A DNA stretch of 25,341 nucleotides from positions 1-25,341 of IMG/VR virus record IMGVR_UViG_3300025470_000078; one strand, given 5' to 3'. The notes below the pieces were generated by a model. That model saw only the letters and a program-made list of their open reading frames with translations, was not told the origin of the DNA and did not search any database. Source of the DNA: a virus. Its lineage: Duplodnaviria > Caudoviricetes. Shown in pieces: positions 619-21,022 of the stretch. The position numbers were made by a program, and so were the translations under genes. Positions within the stretch are counted from its first letter, which is position 1, and every line of letters starts with the position of its first letter.

Positions 619-2619
619 ATGGCACTCATAAAGCTCCAGTTTAAGCCGGGTATCGATAAAGAAATCACGACGCTCGGTGGTAAGGGGGGCTGGTTTGCGT
701 GCAACAACGTGCGCTTTCGCTCTGGCGTGGCCGAAAAAATTGGTGGCTGGACGGTTGACAACGGCGTAACTAGTTCCGCTCTGAAGCCTACTACAGGCAA
801 CTTCTGGGGGCTTGCTAAATCTTTGTTTAGCTGGGCAAGCCTTGCGGGGTTTAACCTGATGGGTATTGGTACTAACGTCAAGTACTACATCCAGAACGGT
901 AACGGCGGTAACTTCTACGACGTAACGCCTATTACTACGACCACTTCGGCAGGGGCAATTACTTTCTCTGCAACCAACGGCTCTACGACCCTGACGGTTA
1001 ACTCTTCTACTTCGCTGACGGTTACAGCGATGACGTTTGTGACTTTCAGTGGTGCAGCCAGTCTGGGCGGCAACGTAACCGCAACCATCCTCAACGCTGA
1101 GTTCCAGATTACCAAAGTCGTTAGTAATACGCAGTTCCAAGTGGTTATGTCGGTCGCTGCCAATTCCAGCGATACAGGTACAGGCGGTGCTTCAACGGTT
1201 GGGGCTTTCCAATTAAACGCTGGGCCCACTCAGTATTCAGTCGGCGTGGGTTGGGGCGCTGGTGGTTGGGGCGGTAGCACTCCGGGCTTTGCGGCTACTG
1301 GCTGGGGTCAGTCTACTGGCGGCTATCAACTGCGTTTGTGGAGCCAGTCTAACTACGGTGAAAACTTGGTCATGAACCCCCGTGGCGGGGCTCTGTACTA
1401 TTGGGTGACTTCTTCGTCGCCCTCAAGCTTTTACCGTGCGCAGATTCTTTCCCCAAGCAACACCAACTATTTCAATGGGGATGCAGGAAACGCGCAGTAT
1501 TGGAAGACAGACAGCTACTGCCCAACGATCGCCAACTTTGTGCTGGTGTCGGATCAGTCTCGGTTTGTGATTGCGTTTGGCACAGATAACAACGGCAACG
1601 GCACGCAAGACCCGATGCTGGTCTCTTGGTCAGACCAGTCTGACATCTTGACATGGACCCCCCAAGTGGGTAACCAAGCTGGTAACTACCGTCTTTCTCA
1701 AGGCTCCTCAATCATTACAGCAGTTCAAGCCCGTCAAGAAATTTTGGTGTGGTCAGATACGTCGCTGTATTCCATGCAGTATCTTGGGCCTCCGTATGTT
1801 TGGGGCTTCCAAATCATGGGCTCAAACGTGTCCATCATTTCGCCTAATGCGCGGGTGGTGGCAAACAACAACGTCTACTGGATGGGCGTTGACAAGTTCT
1901 ACATGTATAACGGTACGGTCCAAACCCTGCCGAGTAGCTTGCGTAAATATGTTTTTGAGAACATCAACATGCAGCAGGCATTCCAAGTCTTTGCTGGCTC
2001 CAACGAGGGCTTCAGTGAAGTTTGGTGGTACTACTGTTCAGCCAGCTCAAACACCATCGACAGCTATGTGATCTACAACTATGTGGATAACACTTGGGCC
2101 TACGGCTCGATGGCGCGTACGGCTTGGACATACAGCCCCCTGCGCGGCCTGCCAGTGGCAACGGGATATAGCAACGGCGGCACAACCAGCGGCAATTTGA
2201 TTTACCACGAGTCTGGAGTGGATGATGGCACAACTAACCCCGCTTCTCCTATCAATGCTTACATCCAATCATCCGACTTCGATATTGGTGATGGTGACAA
2301 GTATGGCTTTGCTTGGCGGATGATTCCTGACGTGTCGTTTGACGGCTCAAATGTTGCTAATCCGTCTATGTATATGACGTTGATGCCCCGCCAAAACCCC
2401 GGTGCGGCCTATAGTGCAACGATATACCCAACCGTACAGAGTACGCAAACATACTCCAATTCAACACCTTTTTACGGCACTCAGCAGTTCACCCAACAAA
2501 TTAATGTTCGGGTGCGCGGTCGCCAGATTGCAGCAGTGTTCGGTTCCAACACGCTGGGCACACAGTGGCAGGTTGGTATTCCTCGAATGGACGTGCGTCC
2601 TGATGGTCGGAGGGCATAA
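619..2619 (+). CDS. Virion tail hub / tail tubular (P22 gp10-like, beta-propeller-type) protein
   Basis: 666 aa, beta-rich. Motifs NVRFR.G..EKIGGW, DPMLVSWSDQ, VYWMG.DKFYMY.G, EVWWYY, YVIYNY...W, RVRGRQ and C-terminal R.DVRPDGRR. Position precedes the ejection genes. Confidence 0.65.
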   Translation: MALIKLQFKPGIDKEITTLGGKGGWFACNNVRFRSGVAEKIGGWTVDNGVTSSALKPTTGNFWGLAKSLFSWASLAGFNLMGIGTNVKYYIQNGNGGNFYDVTPITTTTSAGAITFSATNGSTTLTVNSSTSLTVTAMTFVTFSGAASLGGNVTATILNAEFQITKVVSNTQFQVVMSVAANSSDTGTGGASTVGAFQLNAGPTQYSVGVGWGAGGWGGSTPGFAATGWGQSTGGYQLRLWSQSNYGENLVMNPRGGALYYWVTSSSPSSFYRAQILSPSNTNYFNGDAGNAQYWKTDSYCPTIANFVLVSDQSRFVIAFGTDNNGNGTQDPMLVSWSDQSDILTWTPQVGNQAGNYRLSQGSSIITAVQARQEILVWSDTSLYSMQYLGPPYVWGFQIMGSNVSIISPNARVVANNNVYWMGVDKFYMYNGTVQTLPSSLRKYVFENINMQQAFQVFAGSNEGFSEVWWYYCSASSNTIDSYVIYNYVDNTWAYGSMARTAWTYSPLRGLPVATGYSNGGTTSGNLIYHESGVDDGTTNPASPINAYIQSSDFDIGDGDKYGFAWRMIPDVSFDGSNVANPSMYMTLMPRQNPGAAYSATIYPTVQSTQTYSNSTPFYGTQQFTQQINVRVRGRQIAAVFGSNTLGTQWQVGIPRMDVRPDGRRA

Positions 2620-2943: not shown

Positions 2944-4149
2944 ATGGACGGCGGAATTGGTGAAATGGCGCTATTAGACGCCGCTATTGGTGGTGCGGAA
3001 ACCGGCGCTGTCGTTGGTGGTGGTACATCGTTGTTAACTGGTAAAGATCCTTTGAAGGGTGCGATGTACGGCGCACTCGGTGGGGCGCTTACTGGCGGGG
3101 TAATGAACGGTATGGGCGGTGCTGCTGGAGCTGGCGGTGCTGGGGCTGGTGGTACTTCAGGAGTTGCTGGAGATTTAACTAGCGCTATTCCAAATAATAT
3201 TGGTGCGTCTAACACTTTGGCTGCAACTCAAAACATGGGAAACATGTTAGGCAGTTCAAACAGTGGTTTAATGGATATTGGTAATAGCGGGCTTACCCCT
3301 AACCCAAGTCAAGGTATGTTTGGCGTAAACCCTAGTTCTGGTATGAGCATGGCAAACCCAGATACGTTTAGTCTGGCTTCTAGTAATACGGGCGGTCTTG
3401 GTATGAACCCATCACTGGGCAGTAACCTGTCTGGCCCCGGTGTAGATTTGTCTAATACCTATGGCGCTTCCGGTTTTGGTAATAGTGGCGCACTGGGTGC
3501 AAACTCCGCAGTGTCTTCTATCGGTAATGTTGCTCCTTCTAGTGGCAACTTGTTCTCGCAACTTGGGGATCAGTTTAGCGGGCTGTCCACTAACCAGAAG
3601 TTGATGCTTGGTGGCGGTGCAGGTCTTGGCGCTTTGATGCTGGCCGATAGACGCCGTTATGGTGTTCCTAAAGCTCCCAACCTATCTGGGCCTTTGAGCA
3701 AATTTGGTTATGACCCATCTACCTATAGACCTAGCCTGCCCTATGCGCAAGGTGGTATTGCTGGGTTAGCAGGTGGTGGTATGCCCCACGGACAGTCGCG
3801 TAGCGGCGCATTACGCAGTACACTTGGCATGTTGCATGGTGTTGAGCATTTGTCTGAATTCTCTAGGGGTGGCTCGCTTGGTGGCTATTCTGATGGCGGT
3901 CAGATGCTCAAAGGTCCCGGCGACGGTATGAGCGACAGCATCCCTGCACATATTGACGGTAAACAACCAGCACGCCTTGCGGATGGTGAGTTTGTTATCC
4001 CCGCTGATGTGGTCTCTCACTTGGGCAATGGGTCAACTGATGCAGGTGCAAAACACTTGTACGACATGATGAGCAAGGTGCGCAAAGCCCGTACGGGTAA
4101 CCCCAAGCAGGGTAAACAGATCAACGCAAGTAAGTACTTGCCTAAATAA
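2944..4149 (+). CDS. Gly-rich internal virion/DNA-transfer-like protein with C-terminal GPG..SDSIPA..L.DGEFV module
   Basis: RBS AAAGGAA before the ATG. N-terminal glycine-zipper hydrophobic segments, Ser/Gly/Asn-rich middle, and C-terminal YSDGG..GPGDGMSDSIPA..RLADGEFVIPADVV. Confidence 0.6.
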   Translation: MDGGIGEMALLDAAIGGAETGAVVGGGTSLLTGKDPLKGAMYGALGGALTGGVMNGMGGAAGAGGAGAGGTSGVAGDLTSAIPNNIGASNTLAATQNMGNMLGSSNSGLMDIGNSGLTPNPSQGMFGVNPSSGMSMANPDTFSLASSNTGGLGMNPSLGSNLSGPGVDLSNTYGASGFGNSGALGANSAVSSIGNVAPSSGNLFSQLGDQFSGLSTNQKLMLGGGAGLGALMLADRRRYGVPKAPNLSGPLSKFGYDPSTYRPSLPYAQGGIAGLAGGGMPHGQSRSGALRSTLGMLHGVEHLSEFSRGGSLGGYSDGGQMLKGPGDGMSDSIPAHIDGKQPARLADGEFVIPADVVSHLGNGSTDAGAKHLYDMMSKVRKARTGNPKQGKQINASKYLPK

Positions 4150-4160: not shown

Positions 4161-4904
4161 ATGGCTGGTGGAGGAATGCAACCCGGGGGTTCTTCGGGAA
4201 CTACACAATCAAACGGCTTCTCGCAAGCAAACCAAACACCCCCTTCCGGGTATCGCCCCAGTTCGCCTACGCAGCAGTTTTACCAACCTATATACCAACA
4301 GCAGTATCAGAACTACAACCAAACTGATCCTTATGCAGTTAGCCAATACGGTCAAGGCATGAGGGGTTTTGGTGGTATGGCTGGCTACGGCGGTATGGGC
4401 GGCTACGGCGGTGGTATGGGTGGCGGCGGTGGGGGTTATGGTGGCGGCTTTGGCGGTGGCTATGGTGGTGGCTATGGCGGCTATGGTGGTTACGGTAACT
4501 ATGGCCTCCCACAACTGCAAAGCCCTTTCTCTAATAACTACGGCAACTATGGTGGCACTGGGTTCGGTGGCTATGGTGGCGGCTACGGCGGTGGTATGGG
4601 TGGCGGCGGCTTTGGTGGCGGCTACAACGGTAATAGTGGGTTTATGGGCGGTTTGTCTAACATACATGGTGCGTTACAACAACCTCCGCAACAACCTCCG
4701 CAACAACAAATATACGGTGCGCCTCAACAACCGCCACAACAAGCTCAAAGTTGGGCAATATCTGCACCGTCACAACAACCCTTAGATCCAAATTACAACG
4801 CGGTTATTGGTTCATCACAATTGGCCGACCAAGTTATGCCTGCGCCACCAGTCCCTTCAAATACTGGCTATGGCAGGGGGTTCGCTAATATCATGGCAGA
4901 ATAA
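4161..4904 (+). CDS. Low-complexity Gly/Tyr/Gln/Pro-rich hypothetical protein
   Basis: RBS AAAGGGGA. Fills the gap between flanking genes (11 and 3 bp spacing). GGYGG and QQPP repeats, no Lys or Cys. Confidence 0.7.
   Translation: MAGGGMQPGGSSGTTQSNGFSQANQTPPSGYRPSSPTQQFYQPIYQQQYQNYNQTDPYAVSQYGQGMRGFGGMAGYGGMGGYGGGMGGGGGGYGGGFGGGYGGGYGGYGGYGNYGLPQLQSPFSNNYGNYGGTGFGGYGGGYGGGMGGGGFGGGYNGNSGFMGGLSNIHGALQQPPQQPPQQQIYGAPQQPPQQAQSWAISAPSQQPLDPNYNAVIGSSQLADQVMPAPPVPSNTGYGRGFANIMAE
4398..4609 (+). repeat. 32-bp exact direct repeat (4398-4429 and 4578-4609) within the GGYGG tract
   Basis: GGCGGCTACGGCGGTGGTATGGGTGGCGGCGG occurs twice, 180 bp apart and in frame. Confidence 0.9.
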
Positions 4905-4907: not shown

Positions 4908-5339
4908 ATGAACCTGCAAGTTCGCCCTGTTGACACTAACTACGTCCAACAAGTTTGGCCAATGGTTAAACCTTTCATTGATGAAGCAATGCAAAAAGGT
5001 GGGGAATTCCCCGATTGGGCTGCTGGCTATACCGCCGACCATATCCAAATGTTCTTGACTTCGGGGCAATGGCTATTGGTTGTGGTTGCAGATGAAGCGG
5101 GTGCGATACATGGTGCTGCGACTGTATCGTTCATTAATTACCCACTGCATAGGGTAGCGTTTGTCACTGCGATTGGCGGCAAACTTATTTCTAGCGAAGA
5201 TACATTTACGCAGTTTTCTAATTTGTTAAAAACGCGAGGCGCGACTAAAATCCAAGGTTACGGCAGGCCAGCAATTGTGCGCCTTTGGAAACGGTATAAG
5301 TTTGAACCCCGTAACACCTTGGTGGAAGTTTTACTATGA
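4908..5339 (+). CDS. GNAT-fold acyltransferase-like virion assembly protein (P22 gp14 / T7 gp13 position)
   Basis: 143 aa alpha/beta pattern (QWLLVV...IHGAATVSF..YP..RVAFVTAIGGK...GATKIQGYGR...RLWKRYKF) consistent with phage GNAT-like proteins. ATGA-coupled to the downstream DNA-transfer gene. Confidence 0.55.
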   Translation: MNLQVRPVDTNYVQQVWPMVKPFIDEAMQKGGEFPDWAAGYTADHIQMFLTSGQWLLVVVADEAGAIHGAATVSFINYPLHRVAFVTAIGGKLISSEDTFTQFSNLLKTRGATKIQGYGRPAIVRLWKRYKFEPRNTLVEVLL

Positions 5340-8300
5340 CTAATTACTCTCGTCGGCAACTTGAAGCTTTTGGTGAAACGCTGGGCGAGAGCGTCACTCG
5401 TTTAAAACCCGGTGGCCGTATTTATGGTGGCGGTGGCGGCGGTGGTGGGCAACCCACGTCCCAAACTATTACAACTTCGAACATCCCTGCATATCTTGCA
5501 CCACAAGTGCAGGCTTTGATTGGCGGCGCTACCCAACAGATTTTCCAAACAACCCCCGGGCAAGTGCCTGTATTGGACTCAAACGGCAACCCCGTTATGA
5601 ATTCCGATGGCACTCCGCAGATGCAAGCGGGGAACAACATTACTGGGGTAAACCCCTATACCCCTTATAGCGCAAATCCGTCGGATTACGTTGCTGGCTT
5701 TAGCCCCTTACAGCAACAAGTTCAAGCAAACGCTGCCAACATGATGATGCCCGGGCAGTACAACGACGCAAGCAATATGGCTTTGCAGTCGGGTGTGCAA
5801 GGTATGGGTACTGCTGGTAGCGCTATGGGCTACGGTGGTATGGGCGCTGGCTACGGCGCTCAAGGTGCGAATATCGGCACTCAAGGCGGTGGTTACTATG
5901 GTGCTCAAGGCGCAGGTTATGGCAACTTAGGCGCAAACATTGGGCAGCAAGCTATTGGGTATGGGCAGAACGTAACTAACCAAGCGGGCAACGCTGCTTA
6001 TGGATACGGGGCGCAAGGCGCAAATATTGGTGCGCAAGCTCAGAACTACGGCCAGAATGTAGCTAATCAAGCGGGCAATGCAGCCTATGGGTATGGTCAG
6101 CAAGGTACAAACCTTGGACTGGCTGCTACAAACTATGGACAAAACGCAGCTAATCAGTTGTCGAATAGCGCGTATGACATTACGGGCCAAGCGCAGAATT
6201 TAGCAAACACAGCGCAAAACTATGGCGAGGGTGTGGCTAACCAAGCTGGTAACGCCGCATACGGTTATGGCAATCAAGCTGCACAAGCTGGTCAATTGGG
6301 ACAAGATATTGCTACCCAAGGCGGCGCTGGCTACGGTGGTATGGGCGCTGGGTATGGTGCTCAAGGTGCACAGTTCGGCGCTCAGGGTGCAAACATTGGT
6401 GACCAAGCTGCGGGTATTGCTGGCTTGGCGCAAAACTTTGGTCAAGGCGTAGCTAATCAGGCAGGTAATGCAGCCTACGGATACGGTGCTCAAGCACAAC
6501 AATCTGGCTTAGCAGGTCAAAATCTTGCCGGTATACAAGGGGCCCTGTACGGCGGTATGGGCGCTGGGATGGGTGCGTCGGCAGCAAATCTAGCTAACGC
6601 AGCTCAAGGGTATGGCGGCGCAGGTGCTAACTACGGTGCACAAGCTGCAAGCTTAGCGAACACCGCTTTGAACTATGGTCAAGGCGCTTCCAATATCGGT
6701 ATGCAGGCCCAGCAGCAGGCCCAAGGTCTTGGTCAGAACATCAGTGGTCAGTCTCAGGCTTTGGCGGCTCAACAGGCTGCTGCCGGTCAAAACTATGCTA
6801 ACCAAGCGACCAATCCTGGCGCGGTTAACGCGTACATGAATCCCTATTTGCAAGCTTCTTTGGCTCCGCAAATGGCGCTACTTGAGCAACAGCAAGGACA
6901 ACAACAGGCTGCTAACCAAGCGAAGCAAACTCAATCTGGGGCTTTTGGTGGCAGTCGTGCATCAGTGGAAGATGCGCTGCAAAATCAATCTAACCAGTTG
7001 GCTATGTCCAACCTTATTGGTCAAGGCTACAACAACGCCTACAACCAAGCAATCCAAAACATGCAATATGGGACCTCGGCAGGTCTGCAGGGTATGTCTG
7101 GTGCTCAATCAGGGCTTGCGGGTGCTGGACTTGGTGGCGGTCAGTTAGGTTTGTCTGGGGCTGGCACAGCTTTGCAAGGTCAACAAGGCGCATTGGCTGG
7201 AGTTGGTCAAGCAGGTTCTATGTATGGCCTCGGTATGCAGGGCACGCAATCCGGTATTGCTGGGCTTAACGCCGCCAATCAAGCGTACCAAACAGGTATT
7301 TCTGGGGCAAACACCGGACTGCAAGGTGTTGGTCAGCAGCTGGCTGGCACTGCTCAAGGTATCCTTGGGTCTCAAGCTGGGCTGCAAGGCGTCGGCCAAG
7401 CGGTCAACGCTGGTCAATTGGGTCTGTCTGGTTACAACACCGCAAACAACTTGTACCAAACCGGTATATCTGGGCAGCAAGCGGGTATGGCTGGCGCACA
7501 AACTGGTATTTCCGGTGCGGGCATGGGTTTGCAAGGCGTCAACACACAACTGGCGGGTACAGGCCAAAATATCACTGGTGCTCAGGCTGGTCTGCAAGGT
7601 GTGGGTCAAGCCGTCAACGCTGGTCAGTTGGGTATGTCCGGCATCAACGCGGCAAACAATGCGTATCAAACAGGCATTGCAGGTTTAGGTCAAGCCGGTA
7701 ACGCTGCACAGATCGGTCTGTCTGGGTACAACACTGGTCTTAGCGGTAACGCACAAGGCTTGCAAGGCGTTGGTCAGGCTCTCAATGCGGGCCAACTGGG
7801 TATGTCTGGTTACAACACCAACCTCTCGGGCAATGCTCAAGGTTTGCAAGGTGTTGGTCAGGCGCTCAACGCAGGTCAGCTCGGCATGTCCGGTTACAAC
7901 ACCGGGCTGCAAGGCGCACAAACTGGTATCTCGGGTGCTCAAGCAGGTCTGTCCGGAGTTGGTCAGCAATTGGCGGGCACTGCTCAAGGTATGCAAGGCG
8001 CTCAATCTGGTCTTGCTGGTGTCTCCGGCGCACAGAACGCTTACAACCTAGGCAACACCGCCGCGTCTAATTTGGCGAATATTGGCGGACAGCAACTGGG
8101 CGCTCAACAAAATATTCTGAACCTGCAAAACACTATTGGCGCTCAACAACAAGCCCAACAGCAGAATATTATTAACAACGCTATCAACAACTACTCGATG
8201 GCACAGCAGTATCCGCTGCAGCAGATGAACGCGTATAACGCGTTGTTGCGTGGGTATGCAATTCCCGGCCAGACTACAGCTCAATATCAAGCGGCTCCTA

Positions 8301-8455
8301 GCGCTACATCTATGCTCACAGGTTTGGGTACAGCAGGTATCGGGGCTGCAGGTTTGATGAAAGCCTCGGGCGGTAAAAAAGGTGGTAAAGTTTCTGGTGA
8401 TGGCATTCATAAATTGGCTATCAACCACGCGCTCAAACGGAAGGCCAAAGCATGA
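5336..8455 (+). CDS. 1039-aa DNA transfer/ejection protein with leader, poly-Gly and long Gly/Ala/Gln repeats
   Basis: 30-aa leader followed by Gly8. Non-repetitive islands (VAGFSPLQQQ, YMNPY, GAFGGSR), 29-aa and 7-aa repeats, and a C-terminal glycine-zipper hydrophobic segment. gp7-like position after the GNAT gene. Confidence 0.65.
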   Translation: MTNYSRRQLEAFGETLGESVTRLKPGGRIYGGGGGGGGQPTSQTITTSNIPAYLAPQVQALIGGATQQIFQTTPGQVPVLDSNGNPVMNSDGTPQMQAGNNITGVNPYTPYSANPSDYVAGFSPLQQQVQANAANMMMPGQYNDASNMALQSGVQGMGTAGSAMGYGGMGAGYGAQGANIGTQGGGYYGAQGAGYGNLGANIGQQAIGYGQNVTNQAGNAAYGYGAQGANIGAQAQNYGQNVANQAGNAAYGYGQQGTNLGLAATNYGQNAANQLSNSAYDITGQAQNLANTAQNYGEGVANQAGNAAYGYGNQAAQAGQLGQDIATQGGAGYGGMGAGYGAQGAQFGAQGANIGDQAAGIAGLAQNFGQGVANQAGNAAYGYGAQAQQSGLAGQNLAGIQGALYGGMGAGMGASAANLANAAQGYGGAGANYGAQAASLANTALNYGQGASNIGMQAQQQAQGLGQNISGQSQALAAQQAAAGQNYANQATNPGAVNAYMNPYLQASLAPQMALLEQQQGQQQAANQAKQTQSGAFGGSRASVEDALQNQSNQLAMSNLIGQGYNNAYNQAIQNMQYGTSAGLQGMSGAQSGLAGAGLGGGQLGLSGAGTALQGQQGALAGVGQAGSMYGLGMQGTQSGIAGLNAANQAYQTGISGANTGLQGVGQQLAGTAQGILGSQAGLQGVGQAVNAGQLGLSGYNTANNLYQTGISGQQAGMAGAQTGISGAGMGLQGVNTQLAGTGQNITGAQAGLQGVGQAVNAGQLGMSGINAANNAYQTGIAGLGQAGNAAQIGLSGYNTGLSGNAQGLQGVGQALNAGQLGMSGYNTNLSGNAQGLQGVGQALNAGQLGMSGYNTGLQGAQTGISGAQAGLSGVGQQLAGTAQGMQGAQSGLAGVSGAQNAYNLGNTAASNLANIGGQQLGAQQNILNLQNTIGAQQQAQQQNIINNAINNYSMAQQYPLQQMNAYNALLRGYAIPGQTTAQYQAAPSATSMLTGLGTAGIGAAGLMKASGGKKGGKVSGDGIHKLAINHALKRKAKA
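5957..6304 (+). repeat. 87-bp (29-aa) tandem coding repeat, 4 copies, plus a fifth at 6434
   Basis: NYGQNVANQAGNAAYGYGAQGANIGAQAQ-like units start at 5957, 6044, 6131 and 6218. Confidence 0.85.
7232..8029 (+). repeat. 38 consecutive 21-bp (heptad) coding repeats, G-hydrophobic-x-G-x-x-x
   Basis: Units such as GLQGVGQ, ALNAGQL, GMSGYNT, GISGAQA and QLAGTAQ run in unbroken register. Confidence 0.85.
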
Positions 8456-10533
8456 TCGGCATCATCCAACGTCTTATCAACAGCCCAGAAAAGTTTTCGC
8501 TGCACGAGATTGTCCAAGGCGTGCAGGACGGCACGATCCCAGCTTATATTGGCACGCCACTGATTGCGCAGAAGACACAAGAAGAGAGCCGACAGTCAGC
8601 AGCTGCACAAGGCGGTGCACCACAAAGACCCCCGATTGCCCAGCAAATCATGCAGCAGGCAGAGGCGCAAGAGCAATCGCAAGGCATTCCGGCGTTACCC
8701 ACTTCTATGCCTACTCATTTGGCTGAGGGCGGCATCTTGCACTTTGCCGACGGCGGCATGTATAACGATGACGATGAAGGCGCTCAAGCCGAAGAAGATT
8801 ACTATAAGCAGCAGCAAGAAGAAGGCGGCATGAGCCGCGAAGATCAGCACTTGTTTGACCGCTTGATGGATCAGGCCCAAGCTTCTGACGAAGAAGATGA
8901 GGAAGAGCCACAACCTCAAGTTGCATCCCAACCCCAGCCAAAAAGCCAAGGCATCTCTACATTACCCGCTGTAGCTACGGCTTCATATGAAGCTGCGCAC
9001 CATGCGATTTCTTCTAAGGAAGAGGGCAAGCCCCGTGAATCTCATGCCGAAGGTGTGGAGCACATAACCAAGCAAAAAACCGGTTCGCATCCTTACGAAG
9101 CAATGGTGTTAGAAGAAGCTAGACGTCAGGGCGTTGACCCACGTATTGCTATGCACGTGTTGTATAAAGAAACTGGTGGCGCTAAAGATCCCGCTACTGC
9201 ATTGTCTCCCGCAGGTGCTGGCGGTGTTATGCAGCTTATGCCCGGTACGGCTAAAGACTTGGGTGTTGCTGATCGGTTTGACCCAGCGCAGAATATTCGT
9301 GGAGGCGTTGCATACCTTGCGCAACTACAAAAGCAATTTGGCGAACCCAAGCTGGTAGCTGCTGCATACAATGCTGGCCCCGGTAACGTGCGCAGATATG
9401 GCGGCGTTCCTCCGTTTGCTGAGACTCAAGGCTATGTGCAGGGCTTGGCTCAGGGCGGCAGCGTGCAGCATTTCGACGCAGGTAAACTAGTTTCTGGTGA
9501 CCCTATTGGTAACTACTTCCGTAGTATGTATAGCGACATGCCCAGCAATGCGGCGTATAACAAAAACATACAAGACTATAACGATATTTTTGGGGATACG
9601 TTTGACCCCGAGAGCCTTGCTAACGGCAAGCTGATGTCACAAGCAACTCCGCTTACAGTACCCTACCAAGGCAACGCTGGTCGTGGGTATTACGGTGGCC
9701 CGACTGCAGCACAACTCGCATCGGCTGCACCTAAAACCCCCGCAACTAATACTCCTAGCTACCAAAATACGCCGCAACAGGACTTCCGTAAATCGGAAAT
9801 TTTGGCAGAGAACGCAGCGGGGGATCAGGGTACTACTGGTACTACCGAAGCTGCAGCTACCCCTGAATCCGAAGGGTATCACAGCCCCTACATGAAGGAT
9901 ATGCTGGATTGGATCAACAAAAATAAGAGCGATTTAGATCAGTCCAAATCAGAAGATAAATACTACGCGCTCCTCGCTGCCGGTCTGGGTATGATGGGTG
10001 GCACGTCACCATACGCTTCTGCTAATATTGGTCAAGGCGCAACTCAAGGTTTGGGTTACTTGATGAACGCACGCAAGATGCAGATGGCTCAAGAAAACGG
10101 TATCCAATCCGGTTTGCTGGGTCTGTCACGTGCAGACTTGTATGATCGTATGCACCAAGCGAATATTGACCAGCACGCCGAAGCCGCACGGCAGAGGAAT
10201 GAATACAACCAAGGCCGCTTGGATATTCAGCAGCAGGGCGTCGATAGACAACTTGCAGCGGTCAATGCAAATACTCAAGCGCATAATGCTTCCGCAGATA
10301 TCGGACGTCGTAAACTTGTGTTCCAGTATGACCAAGCATTCCCGGGGTCTGCAGCTGAGCAATCGATCCTTAAAGAACTTAATGCTAAAAAAGTTTCGGA
10401 TCTCAAACCAACGCAGATGCAGATCTATAACCAGAAAAAAATGAACTATATAAATACCCAAGCAGGGTTAGATATGGCTGAAAATGCTACTGGTGTGCCT
10501 AGTTTTGACCAAGTAATGCAATCAAAATCATGA
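8452..10533 (+). CDS. Internal virion protein with soluble lytic transglycosylase (SLT) domain
   Basis: SLT motifs at about 9094-9440: KETGG (catalytic Glu at 9169-9171), SPAGAGGVMQLMPGTA, NIRGG..YL, AAYNAGPG.V, PPFAETQGYV. Acidic linker upstream, and LLAAGLGMMGG plus a coiled segment downstream. Confidence 0.85.
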   Translation: MIGIIQRLINSPEKFSLHEIVQGVQDGTIPAYIGTPLIAQKTQEESRQSAAAQGGAPQRPPIAQQIMQQAEAQEQSQGIPALPTSMPTHLAEGGILHFADGGMYNDDDEGAQAEEDYYKQQQEEGGMSREDQHLFDRLMDQAQASDEEDEEEPQPQVASQPQPKSQGISTLPAVATASYEAAHHAISSKEEGKPRESHAEGVEHITKQKTGSHPYEAMVLEEARRQGVDPRIAMHVLYKETGGAKDPATALSPAGAGGVMQLMPGTAKDLGVADRFDPAQNIRGGVAYLAQLQKQFGEPKLVAAAYNAGPGNVRRYGGVPPFAETQGYVQGLAQGGSVQHFDAGKLVSGDPIGNYFRSMYSDMPSNAAYNKNIQDYNDIFGDTFDPESLANGKLMSQATPLTVPYQGNAGRGYYGGPTAAQLASAAPKTPATNTPSYQNTPQQDFRKSEILAENAAGDQGTTGTTEAAATPESEGYHSPYMKDMLDWINKNKSDLDQSKSEDKYYALLAAGLGMMGGTSPYASANIGQGATQGLGYLMNARKMQMAQENGIQSGLLGLSRADLYDRMHQANIDQHAEAARQRNEYNQGRLDIQQQGVDRQLAAVNANTQAHNASADIGRRKLVFQYDQAFPGSAAEQSILKELNAKKVSDLKPTQMQIYNQKKMNYINTQAGLDMAENATGVPSFDQVMQSKS

Positions 10534-13500
10534 TTCTTGACCTGCCTAAAGTTGGGAAGGTACAGTTTGACGACAACCTAAGCGTTAACGAACTGTACGA
10601 TCAAATCGACAAACTTGCTGATAAGTTTGGTTTTGATTCTGACCGCCCAAAGATGGGCTATGGCGAGATAGCAAAGAATGCCCTGCAACGTGGGCTTGGC
10701 GAATTGGGTTCTGCTGTTACGGAAACAGGCCCTGCTTTAGCCGGTAAAGCATTTGGGTTTGATGAATTTGCTAAAAGAAAATTAGACGAAGCTGCAGAAA
10801 CACAAGCTCGCCTGCAGGAGCAATACCCCGCGCAATACAAGAGCCTTAAAGATATTAAAGGGATTAGTGATATCCCCGGGTATGCTTTAGAAGCGCTAAC
10901 TGAACAAGTACCCTCGCTTGCCACTGCGTTGATCCCCGGTGTGGGGGCGGAGACCTTAGCTGCTAGATACGGCGCAACGGCAGCAGGCAAAACTTTAGCT
11001 GGGCACGCTGGTAATTTTCTTGGTGCGTATGCTTTGGCCGCACCTGCCGTGTTTAACGATGTGTATGAGAAGACTGGCAAGATGGATGCCGGAGCCGCGC
11101 TTATGTTTGGCGCTGGGTCTGCTGCGCTGCAGTCCATCCTCCCTGCGGAACTCTCAAAGAGTTTAAGTGGTGAAGCCAAGGCTACGATTGTTGGCAAGCT
11201 TCTAGAGAAGTCCGGTATGGAGCCGGGGTTGCTGACCTCCGTTCTTGGCAGTGTCGCTAAAGATGCTGGTATCCAAGGTCTAGCAGGTGGCGGTTCGGAA
11301 GCGCTTAATATTGCTGCTGAGAACTTTGTCAATCAGAATCCACATATCTTTGACAGCGATGACTGGAAGCGCATCATGCACTCCAGCATCCAAGGTGCTA
11401 TTGTTGGTGCACCATTTGGTCTGTTAACAGGTTTTGGTAACCGTGAGCGTGTCCCACGTGAAACACCGGAAGAGCAACCACCTACCACTGGAACAGCCGC
11501 CCCAACAACTCCCCAGTTACCGGGTCCCGCATCCGTGCCCTTACTTGAAGCGCCTAAACCAATAGAACCTGCTGCGCCTATTGCACCGGAAACGCCAAGT
11601 GTTGACCAAAAATTAATCAACCAAACACGGTTAGCAGAACAACGCGCTCGGGTTGAGGCTAAACAGGCGCAATACAAATTACGTAAAGCTTTAGAAGAAG
11701 CGCACCAAGACTCGGGCCTCAAGGATCTGCCTGAGTTGCCCGCGCAAGAAGCAAAGCCGATTGTTGCCAAGACAGAAGAAGCTGCTCCCACAGTTCCAGA
11801 TACCCAAGTTAATGACGCCCTGCTAAAGAGTTTTGGTGTGGGCCCATCTGCACTACTACGTAAAAACAAATTAATCGATGGGTTAGATATCGCTAACCCT
11901 GACCACGCAGCGCAGGTGAAACAGGTACTGGAAGCCTACGTAGAAAATCGGAGCCAACCGATCCGTGAGAAAATTGAAGCATACCTTGCACGACCAGAGT
12001 TTCAAGGAGCCGAAGATGTTACAAGACCTGACACTGCCCCAGTTGGAGCAGGCCCTAGTGTGGGTGTCGAACCCATTAATGAGCCCACCCGACCCAGTGA
12101 GCAAATTGAACCCAATGGAAACATTCCTCCTATCGAGGATGTTGGACGAATTGATGCGGGAGAGGGACAGCAGCCCGCTGCAGTAGAGATACCTAAAGCT
12201 GAAGAGCCGAAGGTTGAAATACCAAAAGTTGAAGCGCCCAAGATTGAGGAGTCCGCGCCAGTAGCTACGCCTATCGTGGAGCCTGAGAAAGCAATTGAGA
12301 CTCCACAAATTGAGACACCAAAGGAAGAGCCACGTGTCGCTGAAACCCCTGAAGCCATCGAAACAAAGCCGGAAGAACCGCAAGCAGCAGCCGAGCCAAT
12401 AAAAGCTGTATCGGAAACAAAAACAAAAGATAAATATGGCACGAATGTCAGAGAAATTAAATTTTCTGACGGAAGTGTGCATCAAATAGCCCGCTTAAAT
12501 GGTATTGAAGGCGCTGGGCTTGCGGGATGGCATGATGTCAATCATGAAGGTATAGCGGGATCTTCATACTTGGGTAATACTAAAGAAGAAGCTATAGATT
12601 GGCTTATCGAACTTAAAAAGCAAGAAGAAACTCAGAAAGCTAAAGAAGCAGCCGAGCCAGTAACGCAAGAAGCTGCGCCTGAACAGCCAAAGATAGCGGA
12701 ACCAGTAGCCGAAGAAGCTGCGCCTGAGCAGCCACAAGCAGCGAGTAACCCATTTGTGGGTTTGGAATCTTACGGTGCAGAAGAACCTGTTGCCGATGCT
12801 GCCACACGTCGTGATGAGTTACACGATCAAATTAGAGCAGTAGAAGACTCCCGCCAAGCCTTATTGTCTAAAGATGGTAGACGGCCAAGAGACGGTACAC
12901 CTAAAGCCAAACAATGGGATGACTTGAGTGCGCAACGCGATGACTTGATGGATCAGTGGGCCCAAGCTGACCGCGAAGTTCGGCAAGCCAATAAACCGCA
13001 ACAAGAGTTAAACCCTTTTGCACGTGCCGCTAAACGCACCGGGGAAACTGAAGTTAATTGGCAAGCTGCACCTGATAAGCTGTATGGCAATCCTACGTTC
13101 CAAGGCGAAGAATTAAGCGACGCCGGTAAACGAATTGCTGCGAGTGGCGACAGTAAGCGTCTGTTAGATCACCTCATCAACACCGTCAAGAATCCTGACG
13201 TAAAGAGTGTGTTGCAAGCGTTTCGTCGTATGGGGGTTAACCCTAAGATTGAGATTGGCTCAGTTGAAAATGGACGCCCGGGTCATTATGACCCAACGCC
13301 AGACACAATTAGATTGCACCCAGAACTTGGTCTCAACGAACATACCGTCATTCACGAGTTTACGCACGCTGCAATTTCTCATGTGTTGCGTAACCCCGAT
13401 CACCCGCTGACCAAAGAGTTCGGTAAGTTCTTTGAGCAAATTAGGACTCAGCTGGGCGATGTGTATGGTGCAGAAAACTTACAAGAGTTTGCCGCTGAGC

Positions 13501-16307
13501 TGACGGGTAACCCTCAGTTCCAAGCGATGCTCAAGACCATCAAGGCTCCTAAGAGCGGCAACATGTTCCAACGCATCGTGCAGTCAATTGCCGAGGCATT
13601 GGGTTTCCGCAAGGGCCAGTCTGCCTACGAAAAGGGTTTGAAGTTTATTCACGATGCCATCGATGTATCGGGCGATGTTGAGGCGCACCCTGCTGACAAG
13701 ATGTTTATGGGCTCCGCAGGCAACTTCCCCGGGGTTGGCGCTATTGGTAAGCGTATGCCTGAGATGGTAGGTGAGACCGTCGAGAACGCCAAAAACGTGT
13801 TCTCTAACATCAAAGATTCTGGGCTGCTTAACTTTGCAATGGGCGGTTTGCGTCTAGACAACATGCGTACCTTGTATGGTAAAGAGCTGCCCTCTATTGG
13901 TACGTTATTAAATGCGCTTGAGCAAAAAGCTGGCAAGCAACAGCAAGAACGCACGCGCCTCGACAAGATGGTCGAAGGCTTTATGAATGTCCAAAAGAAA
14001 TACGCCAACGATGTGAAGCGTATGGACCAGATGGCCGTTGATGCCCGCCGTGCAAACGTCGAGTTAGTAGATGCTATTGACCCCAACTTCAAGCCGACCA
14101 AAGAAAACGCTGCCGAGTATGCACGTCTAAAGAAGGTATACAACTCGTTGGATCCGGAAGTCCGTAAGATGTACGACAGCATCCGCACGGAATACGAAGG
14201 CGCAATCAATAAATACCTCAACCTGCTAAGCAGCATGGTTGATCCAAGCTTGGCCCAAAAACTACGCATTCAGTTTGAAGCTGAACAGCGCGTACGTGGC
14301 TATGTACCTTTGAAGCGTTATGGCAACTACTGGATTGAATACGCTGACCCCAAGACCGGCGAACGTGTAGCCTCATCATTTGAGAGCGTGCGTGAGCGCC
14401 AACAGTTTGTTGACAACAACCTCAAGGGTCAGAGTGTCAAGATGTATAAGAACTTGGAAGATATCCGGTTCGACCCAAGCCAAGTTCCTCCCGGACGTTT
14501 TATCGGTAACGTAATGGAAGCCTTGCAAAAGCAGGGTGCAAGTCAAGCGCAACTGGATTCTGTATACCAGTCGTACATCTCATTGTTCCCTGCCGAGTCA
14601 ATTGCTAAACAGTTTGTTCGTGCCAAGGGCACGTTGGGTGAAGACACCAACACCGTCCGTAACTTTGCCAACACCATGTGGTCATGGACAAACAAGTTGG
14701 CGAATACTGAATTCAATCCAAAGATTGATAAAGCCCTTAATGGTATTGAAGCAGAGCGTCAAAACGCAAACAACTCGCAAATTGATGCAGCTGCATCGTC
14801 TATCCTGAGCCAGTCAGAGTTTTTCCACAACCCGACATTTGGTACGCTGACCCATACTGCAACTGCTCTGAGCTACGCTGAATACATTGCAGGTAACATC
14901 TCTTCTGCATTCGTCAACTTGGCTGCTATGCCTATGTTGGTATTCCCAACGCTTGGTGGTAAACACGGATTCGATAGTGCTACTTCTGCATTGTTGTCCG
15001 CTAGCAAGTTAGCTATGGGTAAGTGGGGCGAAACCGCACGGTACAAAGACTTGTATCAAACCTTGATGGACCATGACCAACTGGGCCATGCACTTGCACG
15101 CAATATCATGGAAGGACGCCAGAAGAACCGAGGCGGTCTGCTGGGTGCAAAAGACCGCATGTTTGATGCGCTGTCAATCCCATTTGGCGAGTCTGAAAAG
15201 TTCAACCGTGCATCTACTGCTATCGCTGCCTATGATCTGGCACTTAAAGATGGCATGTCTAAACAAGATGCGATTCGCTATGCCTTAGACACAACCAAAG
15301 ACTTGCACACGTCTGGCTTGTCAGCAACATCTGCTAAGTGGATGCAGAATCCCTTGGGCCGCACGTTCTTTACATTTAAGTCATTTGCTTGGAACTCGGC
15401 ATTTATTATTGGGCGGGCGTTCCATCAGGCATTCAAGGATGAGAATCCCAAGATCCGCGAGGCAGCGCAACGTCAACTGCTCGGTATCTACGGTATGTCT
15501 ATGGTGTTCGGCGGTGTCAAGGGCTTGCCCTTCTACGGCATGGCGTCCACTCTGGGCACAATGATTAACACATTGTTTGGCGATAGCAACGAGCCCTTTG
15601 ATTTTGACGAAGAGATGCGCAAGTTCTGGGGAGAAACTGCGTTCAAGGGTCCGATCAACGCTGCTACTAACCTTGAGATTGCCAACCGCACTGGCCTTGC
15701 CACTGACTTGATCTACCGTGATGACCCCCGAGGCATCGCACAAAACGGCTATGCCATGACTGCTATTAAGCAAGCGTTTGGTCCTTTGGGTTCCTATGCT
15801 GTTGGGGTTGAGCAAGCAATCAAGGAAATGAATGCTGGTAATGTAGAGCGTGGTATCGAAGCCATGCTGCCTAGCTTTGCACGCAATGGACTTAAAGGCG
15901 CTCGATACTTGACCGAGGGGGCCCAAACCCTGCGTGGTGACCCCGTACAGGAAGACGTTACAGCGTGGAACTCATTGATGCAAGGCATTGGCTTTGCACC
16001 TTCCGACTTGTCAGCCACCTACGAGCAGACCTCCGCTATGAAGGGTTACGAGCGCGAAGTGTTGCAGAAGCGTTCCAGCTTGCTTAACAAGTACGACATG
16101 GGCCGCAAGTCAGGGGATACCGATCTGTTGGCAGAAGTGCAGGGCAATATCGCAGAGTTCAACGCAGCCCATCCACAGAACCGAATTACTGGTGAGACCC
16201 TTGCTAAGTCCATCGCTGCTCAGCGTGCTGCCGAGAAGGACATGATTAACGGCGTGAAGTTCAACAAGCACCTACTGCCTGAGTTGCGCCAAAAGTTTGA
16301 CCTGTAA
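10530..16307 (+). CDS. Large polyvalent internal virion/ejection protein with zincin HExxH metallopeptidase-like and PLxRFG-like domains
   Basis: 1925 aa. N-terminal hydrophobic Gly/Ala helices and a Pro/Glu linker. G.YDP..DTI.L...HEFTH (13353-13367) with downstream EFAAE, YVPLKRYG (14301-14324), and a helical C-terminal region with hydrophobic segments. Confidence 0.75.
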   Translation: MILDLPKVGKVQFDDNLSVNELYDQIDKLADKFGFDSDRPKMGYGEIAKNALQRGLGELGSAVTETGPALAGKAFGFDEFAKRKLDEAAETQARLQEQYPAQYKSLKDIKGISDIPGYALEALTEQVPSLATALIPGVGAETLAARYGATAAGKTLAGHAGNFLGAYALAAPAVFNDVYEKTGKMDAGAALMFGAGSAALQSILPAELSKSLSGEAKATIVGKLLEKSGMEPGLLTSVLGSVAKDAGIQGLAGGGSEALNIAAENFVNQNPHIFDSDDWKRIMHSSIQGAIVGAPFGLLTGFGNRERVPRETPEEQPPTTGTAAPTTPQLPGPASVPLLEAPKPIEPAAPIAPETPSVDQKLINQTRLAEQRARVEAKQAQYKLRKALEEAHQDSGLKDLPELPAQEAKPIVAKTEEAAPTVPDTQVNDALLKSFGVGPSALLRKNKLIDGLDIANPDHAAQVKQVLEAYVENRSQPIREKIEAYLARPEFQGAEDVTRPDTAPVGAGPSVGVEPINEPTRPSEQIEPNGNIPPIEDVGRIDAGEGQQPAAVEIPKAEEPKVEIPKVEAPKIEESAPVATPIVEPEKAIETPQIETPKEEPRVAETPEAIETKPEEPQAAAEPIKAVSETKTKDKYGTNVREIKFSDGSVHQIARLNGIEGAGLAGWHDVNHEGIAGSSYLGNTKEEAIDWLIELKKQEETQKAKEAAEPVTQEAAPEQPKIAEPVAEEAAPEQPQAASNPFVGLESYGAEEPVADAATRRDELHDQIRAVEDSRQALLSKDGRRPRDGTPKAKQWDDLSAQRDDLMDQWAQADREVRQANKPQQELNPFARAAKRTGETEVNWQAAPDKLYGNPTFQGEELSDAGKRIAASGDSKRLLDHLINTVKNPDVKSVLQAFRRMGVNPKIEIGSVENGRPGHYDPTPDTIRLHPELGLNEHTVIHEFTHAAISHVLRNPDHPLTKEFGKFFEQIRTQLGDVYGAENLQEFAAELTGNPQFQAMLKTIKAPKSGNMFQRIVQSIAEALGFRKGQSAYEKGLKFIHDAIDVSGDVEAHPADKMFMGSAGNFPGVGAIGKRMPEMVGETVENAKNVFSNIKDSGLLNFAMGGLRLDNMRTLYGKELPSIGTLLNALEQKAGKQQQERTRLDKMVEGFMNVQKKYANDVKRMDQMAVDARRANVELVDAIDPNFKPTKENAAEYARLKKVYNSLDPEVRKMYDSIRTEYEGAINKYLNLLSSMVDPSLAQKLRIQFEAEQRVRGYVPLKRYGNYWIEYADPKTGERVASSFESVRERQQFVDNNLKGQSVKMYKNLEDIRFDPSQVPPGRFIGNVMEALQKQGASQAQLDSVYQSYISLFPAESIAKQFVRAKGTLGEDTNTVRNFANTMWSWTNKLANTEFNPKIDKALNGIEAERQNANNSQIDAAASSILSQSEFFHNPTFGTLTHTATALSYAEYIAGNISSAFVNLAAMPMLVFPTLGGKHGFDSATSALLSASKLAMGKWGETARYKDLYQTLMDHDQLGHALARNIMEGRQKNRGGLLGAKDRMFDALSIPFGESEKFNRASTAIAAYDLALKDGMSKQDAIRYALDTTKDLHTSGLSATSAKWMQNPLGRTFFTFKSFAWNSAFIIGRAFHQAFKDENPKIREAAQRQLLGIYGMSMVFGGVKGLPFYGMASTLGTMINTLFGDSNEPFDFDEEMRKFWGETAFKGPINAATNLEIANRTGLATDLIYRDDPRGIAQNGYAMTAIKQAFGPLGSYAVGVEQAIKEMNAGNVERGIEAMLPSFARNGLKGARYLTEGAQTLRGDPVQEDVTAWNSLMQGIGFAPSDLSATYEQTSAMKGYEREVLQKRSSLLNKYDMGRKSGDTDLLAEVQGNIAEFNAAHPQNRITGETLAKSIAAQRAAEKDMINGVKFNKHLLPELRQKFDL

Positions 16308-16339: not shown

Positions 16340-16576
16340 TCAAGGAGAATACGAGAGAGAGTGCGGGTCAATTGTATCCTTGTTTCGCCAAACCCGCACG
16401 CCGTAGACATAATTTTCTATAACGCATTTAGTCGTTACCTCTAGGCCCAACCTGCGGGCCTCCCGCATAACGTACCGCTGCACAGGTAACCTATTGATGC
16501 AAGGTATAAAAAACGAAGTCCCCGGCTGGAACTTGTGCCACTCAATCGTTACTGGTAGGTTCAGGATCGTCAGCAT
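16340..16576 (-). CDS. Small hypothetical phage protein (G.SFF.P ... GVRVWR type)
   Basis: 78 aa. Overlaps the primase 3' end by 35 bp and ends just before the terminator. The motif pattern resembles small phage proteins of unknown function. Confidence 0.6.
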   Translation of the reverse strand: MLTILNLPVTIEWHKFQPGTSFFIPCINRLPVQRYVMREARRLGLEVTTKCVIENYVYGVRVWRNKDTIDPHSLSYSP

Positions 16577-19394: not shown

Positions 19395-19478
19395 AACCGT
19401 CCTTGAGCGTCATACTAGAAGGAATGGGCAGGGGTGTGACGGGATCACCCTCTTCGGTAGCTAGCCTAGCCCCCCTTA
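19395..19478 (-). promoter_or_regulatory. Candidate structured mRNA leader of the primase-helicase gene
   Basis: GC-rich intergenic region with pairings AAGGGGGGC/GCCCAUUCCUU and AGGGUGA/UCACACCCCU, plus segments complementary to the RBS. Confidence 0.45.
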
Positions 19479-19482
19479 ACCT

Positions 19483-19713
19483 TTAAGCTAACTTGTTAAT
19501 CAGCTTTTGCATTTTGTCGGAGTGCTTGCCAGACACGACCGTTTTTCCGCGAAACCATGAATATACAGTGACACGGCTCACATTAAAGAACTCAGCGACA
19601 TCTGTTGCGGGTATTTCCCTATCTAAACAGAGCAGACCAAGTTTCACACCAAGGAGACTGGCATCAGCCTCCCTGATCTCACGCGCTGTAAGGGTGGAGT
19701 AACCTTTAGACAT
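19483..19713 (-). CDS. Cro/XRE-like helix-turn-helix protein
   Basis: 76 aa. IPATDVAEFFNVSRVTVYSWFRG is a canonical HTH pattern. Confidence 0.8.
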   Translation of the reverse strand: MSKGYSTLTAREIREADASLLGVKLGLLCLDREIPATDVAEFFNVSRVTVYSWFRGKTVVSGKHSDKMQKLINKLA

Positions 19714-20602
19714 CGTCCCAATTCTCTAAGATGCTTGCCAAGTCTTTCTTGGGTTCAGCCTCTTCCTGCTTCTTAGCCGCACGCTTGGTGGGCTCTTCAG
19801 CTTTGGGTTCTTCGGCCTTCACTTCGGGTTCTTCGGCTTTAGGTTCTTCAGCTTTGGGCTCTGCCTTTGACTTAGCTTTCACGCCGTCCATTTCAGACAC
19901 GGTGAACGTGATGGCACGCTTGGCTTCTTCGGTGTTAGCTTGTGCGATAACGGCTTGGTGCTCAGAAGCATCCAACACCTTAACAGGTTTGAACGTCAGC
20001 TTGGGCGTGGCGCTATCGGTATCGAAACGCATCTCGGTCACCACAGCAGTGATGGGAATACCCTTGCTACCAATCATCTTGGCATAAGTTTGTAGGGGCC
20101 ACTTGCCAGACTCGCCAGCACCAAAGATAGATGCTCCGGGCAAGGTCAACTGGAAAACATCTCCAGCAATGTCATTAGCCAACACAACTGCCAGACGTTG
20201 GTTGAAGCGGCAAGCACGGCTATCGCCTTGGCCCGAACCCTTGACGTTTTGTTCGCAGTCCATGCAACGCTTGGCTTGTGGGTTCTTCACCTTGGCATCA
20301 GGCACGTCACCGTCAGCAGACCAGCATGTAGGTGCAACAGGCTCATCACCTTCTTTGTACGTGCCAATGTAGAACGTGCGGGACACCTTGGGTGCAGCAG
20401 CAGCGATGACGACGTTCATAGCGCGGTCTTCGTTCTTGGCAACTTCTTTGCCGTTGACCATCATGCGCCATACGCCGCCTTTGATTGAGATACGCTTGGA
20501 CTGCGAACCGCCACCCATCAGGGCTTTAGTTGTTTCGTCAAGCTCCATAGTCTTCAAGTACGATGGAAGACCGATGTCGAGAATTGCAAGTTCGTTGCTC
20601 AT
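19706..20602 (-). CDS. Putative single-stranded DNA-binding protein
   Basis: Start reassigned to the ATG at 20602 (AGGAG RBS, 1 bp after the upstream stop). RISIKGG..., P.CWS.DG..P, C..C..N.KGS...RACR, a KAEEP repeat linker and an acidic/aromatic tail (LENWDDV). Sits in the replication module. Confidence 0.55.
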   Translation of the reverse strand: MSNELAILDIGLPSYLKTMELDETTKALMGGGSQSKRISIKGGVWRMMVNGKEVAKNEDRAMNVVIAAAAPKVSRTFYIGTYKEGDEPVAPTCWSADGDVPDAKVKNPQAKRCMDCEQNVKGSGQGDSRACRFNQRLAVVLANDIAGDVFQLTLPGASIFGAGESGKWPLQTYAKMIGSKGIPITAVVTEMRFDTDSATPKLTFKPVKVLDASEHQAVIAQANTEEAKRAITFTVSEMDGVKAKSKAEPKAEEPKAEEPEVKAEEPKAEEPTKRAAKKQEEAEPKKDLASILENWDDV

Positions 20603-20603
20603 A

Positions 20604-20990
20604 TTAGCTCCTAGATTTAGTGATAACAATGGTTTGTGAAACATCCGCGTTTAGTCCCGGCGGATGAAGATCGGGATTTTCCTCAAGGTACTGTGCCATG
20701 TTGGTGTTGTTGATGCGCTGCTGCATCAGGTTGAAGGCGTCGTTCTCTTTGATGAATTTGAAGAACGATTCCCAGTCGCTTGTCCAGTAGTTCTTACTGG
20801 TGCGTCGTGAGACCGTGCCGTGTTCGGTACGGATCGTAGTAGCCCCCTGCGCTTTGCAGATCTCAAGTAGCTCAGCCGCAATCACGTTTTGCTGTTCCTT
20901 AAGACTGTCGGCCTCTTTCTCAAGGGCTAGCCGCTTCTCGCGGATCTTGACATATATCGCCGCCAGTCGGTCGGCACTTACTTCGCTCAT
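20604..20990 (-). CDS. Conserved-type hypothetical phage protein (N-terminal coiled coil, T.HGT, DW..F..FI)
   Basis: 128 aa, strong RBS AAGGAG, first gene after a consensus promoter. Confidence 0.75.
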   Translation of the reverse strand: MSEVSADRLAAIYVKIREKRLALEKEADSLKEQQNVIAAELLEICKAQGATTIRTEHGTVSRRTSKNYWTSDWESFFKFIKENDAFNLMQQRINNTNMAQYLEENPDLHPPGLNADVSQTIVITKSRS

Positions 20991-21022
20991 TGCACTCTCC
21001 TTCGGTTGTAAAAGGTTTAACT

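Follow-up and report, generated by a model that had tools for sequence, protein, structure and literature searches.

The analysed DNA, hereafter the window, comprises all 25,341 nucleotides of positions 1 to 25,341 of IMG/VR virus record IMGVR_UViG_3300025470_000078 (Duplodnaviria; Caudoviricetes), from a short-tailed phage. The subject is a pair of adjacent genes, one for a small GNAT-like protein (4908-5339) and one, directly behind it, for a protein of 1039 amino acids (aa), here called the pilot. Both lie on the + strand, whose genes here run in the order endolysin, phrog_3287 protein, gene X, gene Y, GNAT-like gene, pilot gene, SLT protein and 1925-aa protein (Table 1).

A sequence-only reading had described this pair as an enzyme with its own substrate, in which removal of an N-terminal leader from the pilot exposes a glycine that the GNAT-like protein acylates. 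Its description of the DNA proved accurate. The stop codon of the GNAT-like open reading frame (ORF), TGA at 5337-5339, overlaps the ATG of the pilot (5336) in an ATGA arrangement; residues 1-30 of the pilot contain 8 charged residues and are followed by eight glycines; and the remaining part, residues 31-1039, is nearly uncharged, with 24 charged residues out of 1009 (2.4%), 10 of them within the last 39. These last 39 residues are rich in Lys and Arg, and both ends of the protein are conserved among relatives. The ATGA overlap itself carries little weight, because identical overlaps occur at the next two junctions of the window (8452/8455 and 10530/10533) and relatives frequently lack it between GNAT and pilot.

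The pilot of the window matched neither PHROG nor Pfam entries, and it scored 245 bits against a profile built from 74 short relatives. Four short relatives matched phrog_4287 ('DNA ejection protein') with E values from 4e-19 to 1e-3. Judged by these similarities, the 1039-aa protein likely belongs to the ejection-protein family assumed in the sequence-only reading, in the position of internal virion protein B (IVP-B). Pilot length varied from about 250 to 1700 aa across relatives, through expansion of the Gly/Ala/Gln-rich middle.

Fold and motifs of the GNAT-like protein

The AlphaFold (AF2) model of the 143-aa protein had a mean pLDDT (predicted local distance difference test score) of 89.9. 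Foldseek against pdb returned 265 solved chains at E ≤ 0.001 (E 5e-8), the matches listed being acetyltransferases or close GNAT-type entries. The best VIA match was Hpa2, with Z 12.1 and a root-mean-square deviation (rmsd) of 3.0 over 133 aligned residues. The guess of a GNAT-like fold was thereby borne out: the predicted structure is a single-domain fold of the GNAT (Nat/Ivy) superfamily, and 7 of 119 family members matched PF00583 at E ≤ 0.05. Direct sequence searches of Pfam, PHROG and PDB with this protein gave nothing useful. Among the fold matches listed by Foldseek and VIA there was no N-myristoyltransferase (NMT), RTX-activating acyltransferase or tRNA-dependent transferase, which excludes none of them.

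The family to which the protein belongs, here family A, comprised 1225 relatives in a single-sequence search, and 365 clusters at 50% identity. The cultured Methylophilales phage Venkman carries a 39% identical GNAT gene followed by a gene for an ejection-type protein, the pair gp47/gp46. At another locus (L044:6001-6830), a tandem pair of family-A-like GNAT genes stood before the pilot. A search for longer or fused forms, with 7994 candidates scored, yielded one match, in which a terminase and a GNAT are joined on one 1.3-kb contig and which looks like an assembly chimera.

Motifs were counted in 126 proteins of 128-160 aa, drawn from 151 diverse family A proteins. The canonical motif A phosphate loop, R/Q-x-x-G-x-G/A between beta4 and alpha3, was found in none of the 126. 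In weak profile alignments of family A with a canonical GNAT family (family B), a gap fell at the position of this coenzyme A (CoA) loop. Conserved positions were W17, G53, L57, G69, P79, R82, A84, G90, G91, G111, T113, R125 and L126, with R120 retained at 67%. The CoA-binding site on which the sequence-only reading had depended is thus missing in its canonical form, and the family A protein either transfers groups from a non-canonical donor or has lost its activity.

RTX-activating acyltransferases have a GNAT fold and use acyl carrier protein (ACP) loaded with an acyl group as donor. Family A resembles these enzymes and the Leu/Phe-tRNA transferases in combining a GNAT fold with absence of the canonical phosphate loop, a likeness that rests on loop absence and not on a sequence or structure match. 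According to the cited part of Longo et al. (PMC9703596), the loop between beta4 and alpha3 binds the CoA pyrophosphate, and tRNA-using families such as the Leu/Phe-tRNA transferases are without it.

The leader and its exchange among relatives

Leaders were classed by pattern, the window leader being type A and type C a mixed, mostly hydrophobic class. The 187 locus rows with both enzyme and pilot reduced to 149 when made unique by enzyme end and pilot start. Pilots paired with family A alone had leader A in 38 cases, B in 6, C in 6, D in 1 and no leader in 14. Co-occurrence of this GNAT family with leader A was thus seen at 38 loci, and the others had a different leader type or none, so the leader is optional.

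On a tree of these 65 family A GNATs, 19 changes of leader state were counted, and the closest relatives of the window GNAT carry leader B or lack a leader. Leader A also stood behind canonical family B GNATs at 19 unique loci, all of which had been fetched by leader and are hence biased. Leaders of types B or D head gene X or Y at many loci, leader types are common to up to three module genes, and a type B leader was present on another module gene in 15 of the 38 family A loci with leader A. Type D is about 55 aa long and ends in INPxTGLxE; it heads gene X at many loci and the pilot in phage Venkman (L069:3047-3210; L068:12405-12580). It had no Pfam or PHROG match and also matched a gene annotated as a tape measure protein.

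The 18-codon core of leader A, compared across 54 relatives, gave a pS of 0.67 for synonymous and a pN of 0.15 for nonsynonymous differences (pN/pS 0.22). Over 59 rows, partly fetched by leader, conservation was 0.77 in leader A versus 0.53 in the 32 residues after the Gly run. By these comparisons, leader A is under purifying selection as a protein and is not a chance extension. It must also be translated, because no in-frame start codon other than 5336 precedes the Gly run; an internal start at the Gly run was accordingly ruled out for the window. Translational coupling was likewise rejected as the reason for the leader, since ATGA overlaps also occur on leaderless genes (10/13) and leaders on non-overlapping genes.

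A junction of a hydrophobic residue followed by small residues was found in 122 of 134 leader-bearing pilots. The residue after the junction was Gly in 108 of the 122, and Ser, Asp or Ala in the other 14. Of the 14 leaderless pilots partnering family A, ten begin with Met-Ser, three with Met-Gly and one with Met-Ala, and a Gly-rich start is retained in every one. The ATGA overlap forces a second codon starting with A, so that the Ser start is partly imposed, yet it is tolerated; where leaderless pilots were free of the overlap, three of four started with Met-Gly.

Removal of the leader is likely, given the purifying selection acting on it and the hydrophobic residue that closes it just ahead of Gly. 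The leader is thus likely an optional propeptide that is cut just before the Gly run, leaving a small residue and the Gly run, as the junctions and the leaderless orthologues suggest; on this point the sequence-only reading was upheld.

Occupants of the slot and module context

The position before the pilot gene was occupied very consistently. Among loci fetched with the pilot start, a transferase-like gene lay directly upstream in 40 of 41 (16 family A, 23 canonical family B and 1 DDxxD protein), and the remaining locus had only 32 bases upstream. A second pilot-fetched set of 39 loci, many of which repeat earlier contigs, had a transferase-like gene in all 38 with a detected pilot.

Family B and a further canonical GNAT family, that of locus L231, have an intact CoA loop and match PF00583; family B also showed a weak match to ICP2 gene 8 and has a member in the cultured phage PfAn1. 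The L231 gene (2555-3013) precedes a leaderless pilot (from 3016) with a Met-Cys-Gly start that resembles the Met-Cys start of T7 gp14. Beyond the leaderless family A pilots, a Met-Cys-Gly start behind another canonical GNAT was seen at three loci.

The DDxxD protein, of 150 aa with an invariant DDxxD, occupied the slot without a GNAT in 58 of the 60 unique loci fetched with it. Its model had a pLDDT of 88.4, and the best VIA match was heptaprenyl diphosphate synthase (Z 8.0, rmsd 4.0, 138 residues aligned); 42 of the 50 VIA matches listed were isoprenoid-synthase-fold proteins, counted by title. Foldseek gave no match at E ≤ 0.001, and the PDB sequence search gave nothing meaningful. From the model, an isoprenoid-synthase fold is likely. 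A distant DDxxD homologue stands before a gene with a Met-Gly-Cys start in the cultured Achromobacter phage CF418P1.

On a tree of the pilots (122 of the 149 rows), the DDxxD/GNAT label changed 24 times, with at least 8 changes forced by strong branches. Leader A was rare beside DDxxD (2/60, versus 28/53 in GNAT-fetched loci), and enzyme and leader A switched together in about 7 of 8 independent pairs (p about 0.016). This pattern favours some link between enzyme and leader. Because the two are immediate neighbours on the DNA, enzyme gene and leader can also be transferred together as a single block, and the joint switching may be hitch-hiking.

Other genes were seen in or near the slot. A SAM (S-adenosylmethionine) methyltransferase (PF08241 in L042:6477-7145) was inserted in it beside the DDxxD gene, and ORFs of 220 aa lay upstream of DDxxD in L147, L178, L179 and L181. 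A cupin-like identity considered for a 142-aa gene of L064 was not supported, as that gene matches tail-fibre PHROGs.

The proteins of the window include neither a DDxxD protein nor a family B member. Short [FYL]A-x-GG motifs recur in both gene X and the SLT protein, and the conserved C-terminal domain of gene X, with a GDGMSDSI motif, is present in nearly all related loci. A convergent replication module on the - strand fills 16340-25341, with a primase/helicase-like gene at 16542-19394 and ORFs that by eye resemble helicase, nuclease and DNA polymerase genes.

Table 1. Features of the window, and loci of the alternative DDxxD occupant
Feature	Position	Strand	Basis or remark
Virion structural protein, upstream of the ejection module; putative tail-tube-B position	619..2619	+	phrog_3287, E 7e-56
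Gene X, same module; leaderless in the window (M-D-G-G start)	2944..4149	+	many relatives bear leader type B or D
Gene Y, low-complexity, Gly/Gln-rich, M-A-G-G-G start	4161..4904	+	gene at same position in relatives often has leader type A or B
IVP-A-slot gene; predicted 143-aa single-domain GNAT-fold protein (family A), without canonical CoA pyrophosphate loop	4908..5339	+	AF2, Foldseek, VIA; motif count
End of beta4 to start of alpha3 (residues 86-100), expected site of R/Q-x-x-G-x-G/A; short loop after conserved Gly-Gly	5163..5207	+	predicted secondary structure; motif in 0/126
30-aa leader, type A; predicted propeptide, optional and exchangeable among relatives	5336..5425	+	sequence comparison
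Gly8 run (Gly31-38), predicted mature N-terminus; Gly-rich start kept in leaderless orthologues	5426..5449	+	sequence comparison
Probable first ejection protein (pilot, IVP-B slot), 1039 aa, expanded Gly/Ala/Gln-rich middle	5336..8455	+	245 bits to short-relative profile
Second ejection-type protein with SLT transglycosylase domain	8452..10533	+	PF01464, E 1e-21
Large internal-virion-type protein, 1925 aa, LPD39 (PF18858) and DarB-like C-terminal region, polyvalent-type; putative IVP-D position	10530..16307	+	Pfam/PHROG-type matches
DDxxD protein in related loci	L103:4502-4948; L115-L194 around 5001-5444		214 relatives in IMG/VR

Comparison with known systems and interpretation

NMT, at about 400 aa, consists of tandem GNAT domains and is strictly specific for N-terminal Gly. 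The window pair resembles it in the predicted GNAT fold and in a candidate substrate with an N-terminal Gly, and differs in that the enzyme is one domain of 143 aa and orthologous partners often start with Ser. The Met-Ser starts of 10 of the 14 leaderless partners speak against strict Gly specificity if the pilot N-terminus is the substrate, and with the reservation that ATGA forces a codon starting with A. Together with the missing CoA loop, these features count against the Gly-specific, NMT-like fatty acylation that had been proposed.

The idea of a private pair of enzyme and leader, as in ribosomally synthesized and post-translationally modified peptides (RiPPs), was not supported either. 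Leaders were not dedicated to one enzyme: a single GNAT family occurred with five leader states, one and the same leader with different GNAT families, and leaders of mixed type within a locus. The part behind the leader is a protein of 1009 aa and not a short core peptide.

A closer parallel is provided by internal virion protein A (IVP-A). As stated in the cited section of Hardies 2016 (PMC4819975), a small, non-structural, acetyltransferase-like IVP-A required for morphogenesis precedes IVP-B in T7, P22, epsilon15 and phiRIO-1-like phages, and in phiRIO-1 IVP-A is replaced by an unrelated gene. The same account is repeated in the corresponding parts of the Cobavirus (PMC6775973) and PhiGT1 (PMC10386132) papers. 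The biochemistry of IVP-A appears open, since the cited portions of these papers call it acetyltransferase-like and assembly-required and leave the substrate unnamed, and those of PMC8954989, PMC9728967 and PMC5512222 name no substrate for an IVP-A-type GNAT.

The window gene shares with IVP-A of T7 (gp13), P22 (gp14), epsilon15 and the phiRIO-1 group a small product of predicted acetyltransferase fold, a place behind the tail genes and directly ahead of the first ejection gene, and replaceability by an unrelated gene. Unlike T7 gp13 and P22 gp14, family A is a separate family, abundant in uncultured phages and without a CoA loop, whose slot alternates with canonical GNATs and the DDxxD protein. 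The earlier comparison with the P22 gp14/gp7 pair thus stands for slot and gene order, by position and not by sequence. This analogy suggests that the window pair may work like T7 gp13/gp14 and P22 gp14/gp7.

P22 gp7 loses 20 residues to host OpdA (oligopeptidase A), and deletion of its leader leaves about 60% of the burst, according to the relevant passage of PMC8402733; removal precedes assembly in the account quoted from PMC4992974. The pilots resemble gp7 in that this first ejection protein bears at its N-terminus an extra 20-30 aa, largely dispensable, ahead of a Gly-rich start, and two relatives have a K-G-G-G junction reminiscent of its K-G-G. In contrast to gp7, the leader sequence is unrelated, at least four leader types exist and are shared among module genes, and a hydrophobic residue rather than Glu precedes the junction.

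The best explanation, which we put forward tentatively, is that the 4908-5339 product is a non-structural helper of IVP-A type that, as the virion is assembled, transfers an acyl group from a non-canonical donor to an amine on the ejection proteins without depending on the leader, and that removal of the leader falls to a separate enzyme, a protease that is probably the host's. As with P22 gp7, this would probably be a host peptidase cutting after Tyr30, the last hydrophobic residue, and exposing the Gly run; in orthologues with no leader, the Met removal expected from Met-aminopeptidase rules would produce an equivalent small-residue start. The helper would then acylate this small-residue N-terminus, or a lysine, with no need to recognize the leader. 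Because the pyrophosphate loop is lost, the donor is proposed to be non-canonical, such as acyl-ACP, or to be CoA bound through the conserved Arg82, Arg120 and Arg125. The acyl tag may aid procapsid loading or outer-membrane entry, and the helper itself would not be packaged, in line with what is reported of T7 gp13. Counted in favour of this explanation were the predicted GNAT fold, the IVP-A precedent, the constancy of the slot, the intact motifs in families B and L231, the DDxxD replacement, the hydrophobic-Gly junctions, the OpdA cleavage of the largely dispensable P22 gp7 leader, and the lack of the loop in GNAT-fold families with other donors. Acyl transfer by the family A protein may be regarded as plausible.

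Several results weigh against it. Besides the missing CoA loop, the position of the usual general-acid Tyr is occupied in family A by Trp (43%), Tyr (19%) or Leu (19%). No sequence link was found from family A to T7 gp13 or P22 gp14: none of 119 family A members matched PF11090 (T7 gp13) or PF11039 (P22 gp14) at E ≤ 0.05, and the family A profile against single gp13 or gp14 sequences gave a probability under 1%, remote homology being still possible. The pilot scored -17 and -14 bits against P22 gp7 and T7 gp14, inside the range of 200 shuffles each. The cleavage position is read from the alignment alone, from the junction pattern and the leaderless orthologues, and the DDxxD fold match is weak, with a Z that is low for a helical protein. 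An amber fragment of P22 gp7 taken from particles had a readable N-terminal K-G-G-K-G, as described in the cited passage of PMC8402733; the alpha-amine was therefore free in at least part of the protein, which argues against full alpha-acylation in P22.

Some of these points are shared by a somewhat unlikely alternative, in which the GNAT-fold protein is without catalysis and serves as a chaperone or loader, holding ejection proteins by their unfolded N-terminal part and passing them to the procapsid, the leader being cut and no acylation taking place. Loss of the CoA loop and the lack of a conserved general acid in family A would fit such a protein, as would the sequenceable gp7 N-terminus (PMC8402733), the description of IVP-A as non-structural yet assembly-required, and its substitution by an unrelated protein in phiRIO-1 (both in the cited section of PMC4819975). 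It accords poorly with the other slot occupants, which before the same leader/pilot family keep enzyme motifs (the CoA loop in B and L231, the invariant DDxxD), and with the three Arg, one Trp and Gly-Gly conserved across family A members of 30-50% identity. An active transferase with a substrate other than the pilot N-terminus, such as a different protein of the virion, a protein of the host's envelope or defences, or a small amine, would owe its position to late-gene co-expression. Acetyltransferases for polyamines, aminoglycosides and histones are indeed among the closest solved folds, ATGA overlaps are commonplace in this operon, and late-module phage GNATs have been proposed to modify other proteins (cited part of PMC5512222); but placement immediately ahead of the first ejection gene is very constant, even where one enzyme family gives way to another, and we regard this alternative as distinctly unlikely.

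Least credible, and highly improbable, is the model of the sequence-only reading, in which the leader directs the neighbouring GNAT in the manner of a RiPP leader and is cleaved off, leaving an exposed Gly to receive a fatty acyl group as in N-myristoylation. The preponderance of Gly after the junction, the conservation of leader A, its rarity with DDxxD and joint switching with the enzyme, and the Met-Gly starts of most leaderless pilots without ATGA overlap are all in its favour. They are opposed by the pairing of family A with leaders A, B, C, D or none, by the leader B or leaderless state of the window GNAT's nearest kin, by type B leaders on other module genes, by the tolerated Met-Ser starts and by the single-domain enzyme without a CoA loop; the joint switching, as noted, can be hitch-hiking.

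A broader version of the leader-independent helper, in our judgement rather unlikely, would make the slot a plug-in site for lipid transfer. An acyl-CoA GNAT, a loop-less acyl-ACP GNAT like that of the window, or a minimal prenyltransferase would occupy it and would each attach a hydrophobic anchor to the Gly-rich N-terminus bared by propeptide removal. No report of acylated or prenylated phage ejection proteins was found in the literature searched, outside which lie most subscription journals, old scans and supplements. The natural variants form a direct test set, with the leader present, swapped or absent and with a loop-less GNAT, a canonical GNAT or a prenyl-synthase-like partner. If there is no lipid tag, the pair would be an ordinary assembly helper plus a mosaic propeptide. 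If the tag is real, it would explain the loading or outer-membrane entry of a nearly uncharged pilot, and a lipid-transfer slot, if true, would assign a biochemical role to T7 gp13 and P22 gp14 and offer a parallel to the myristoylated entry proteins of eukaryotic viruses.

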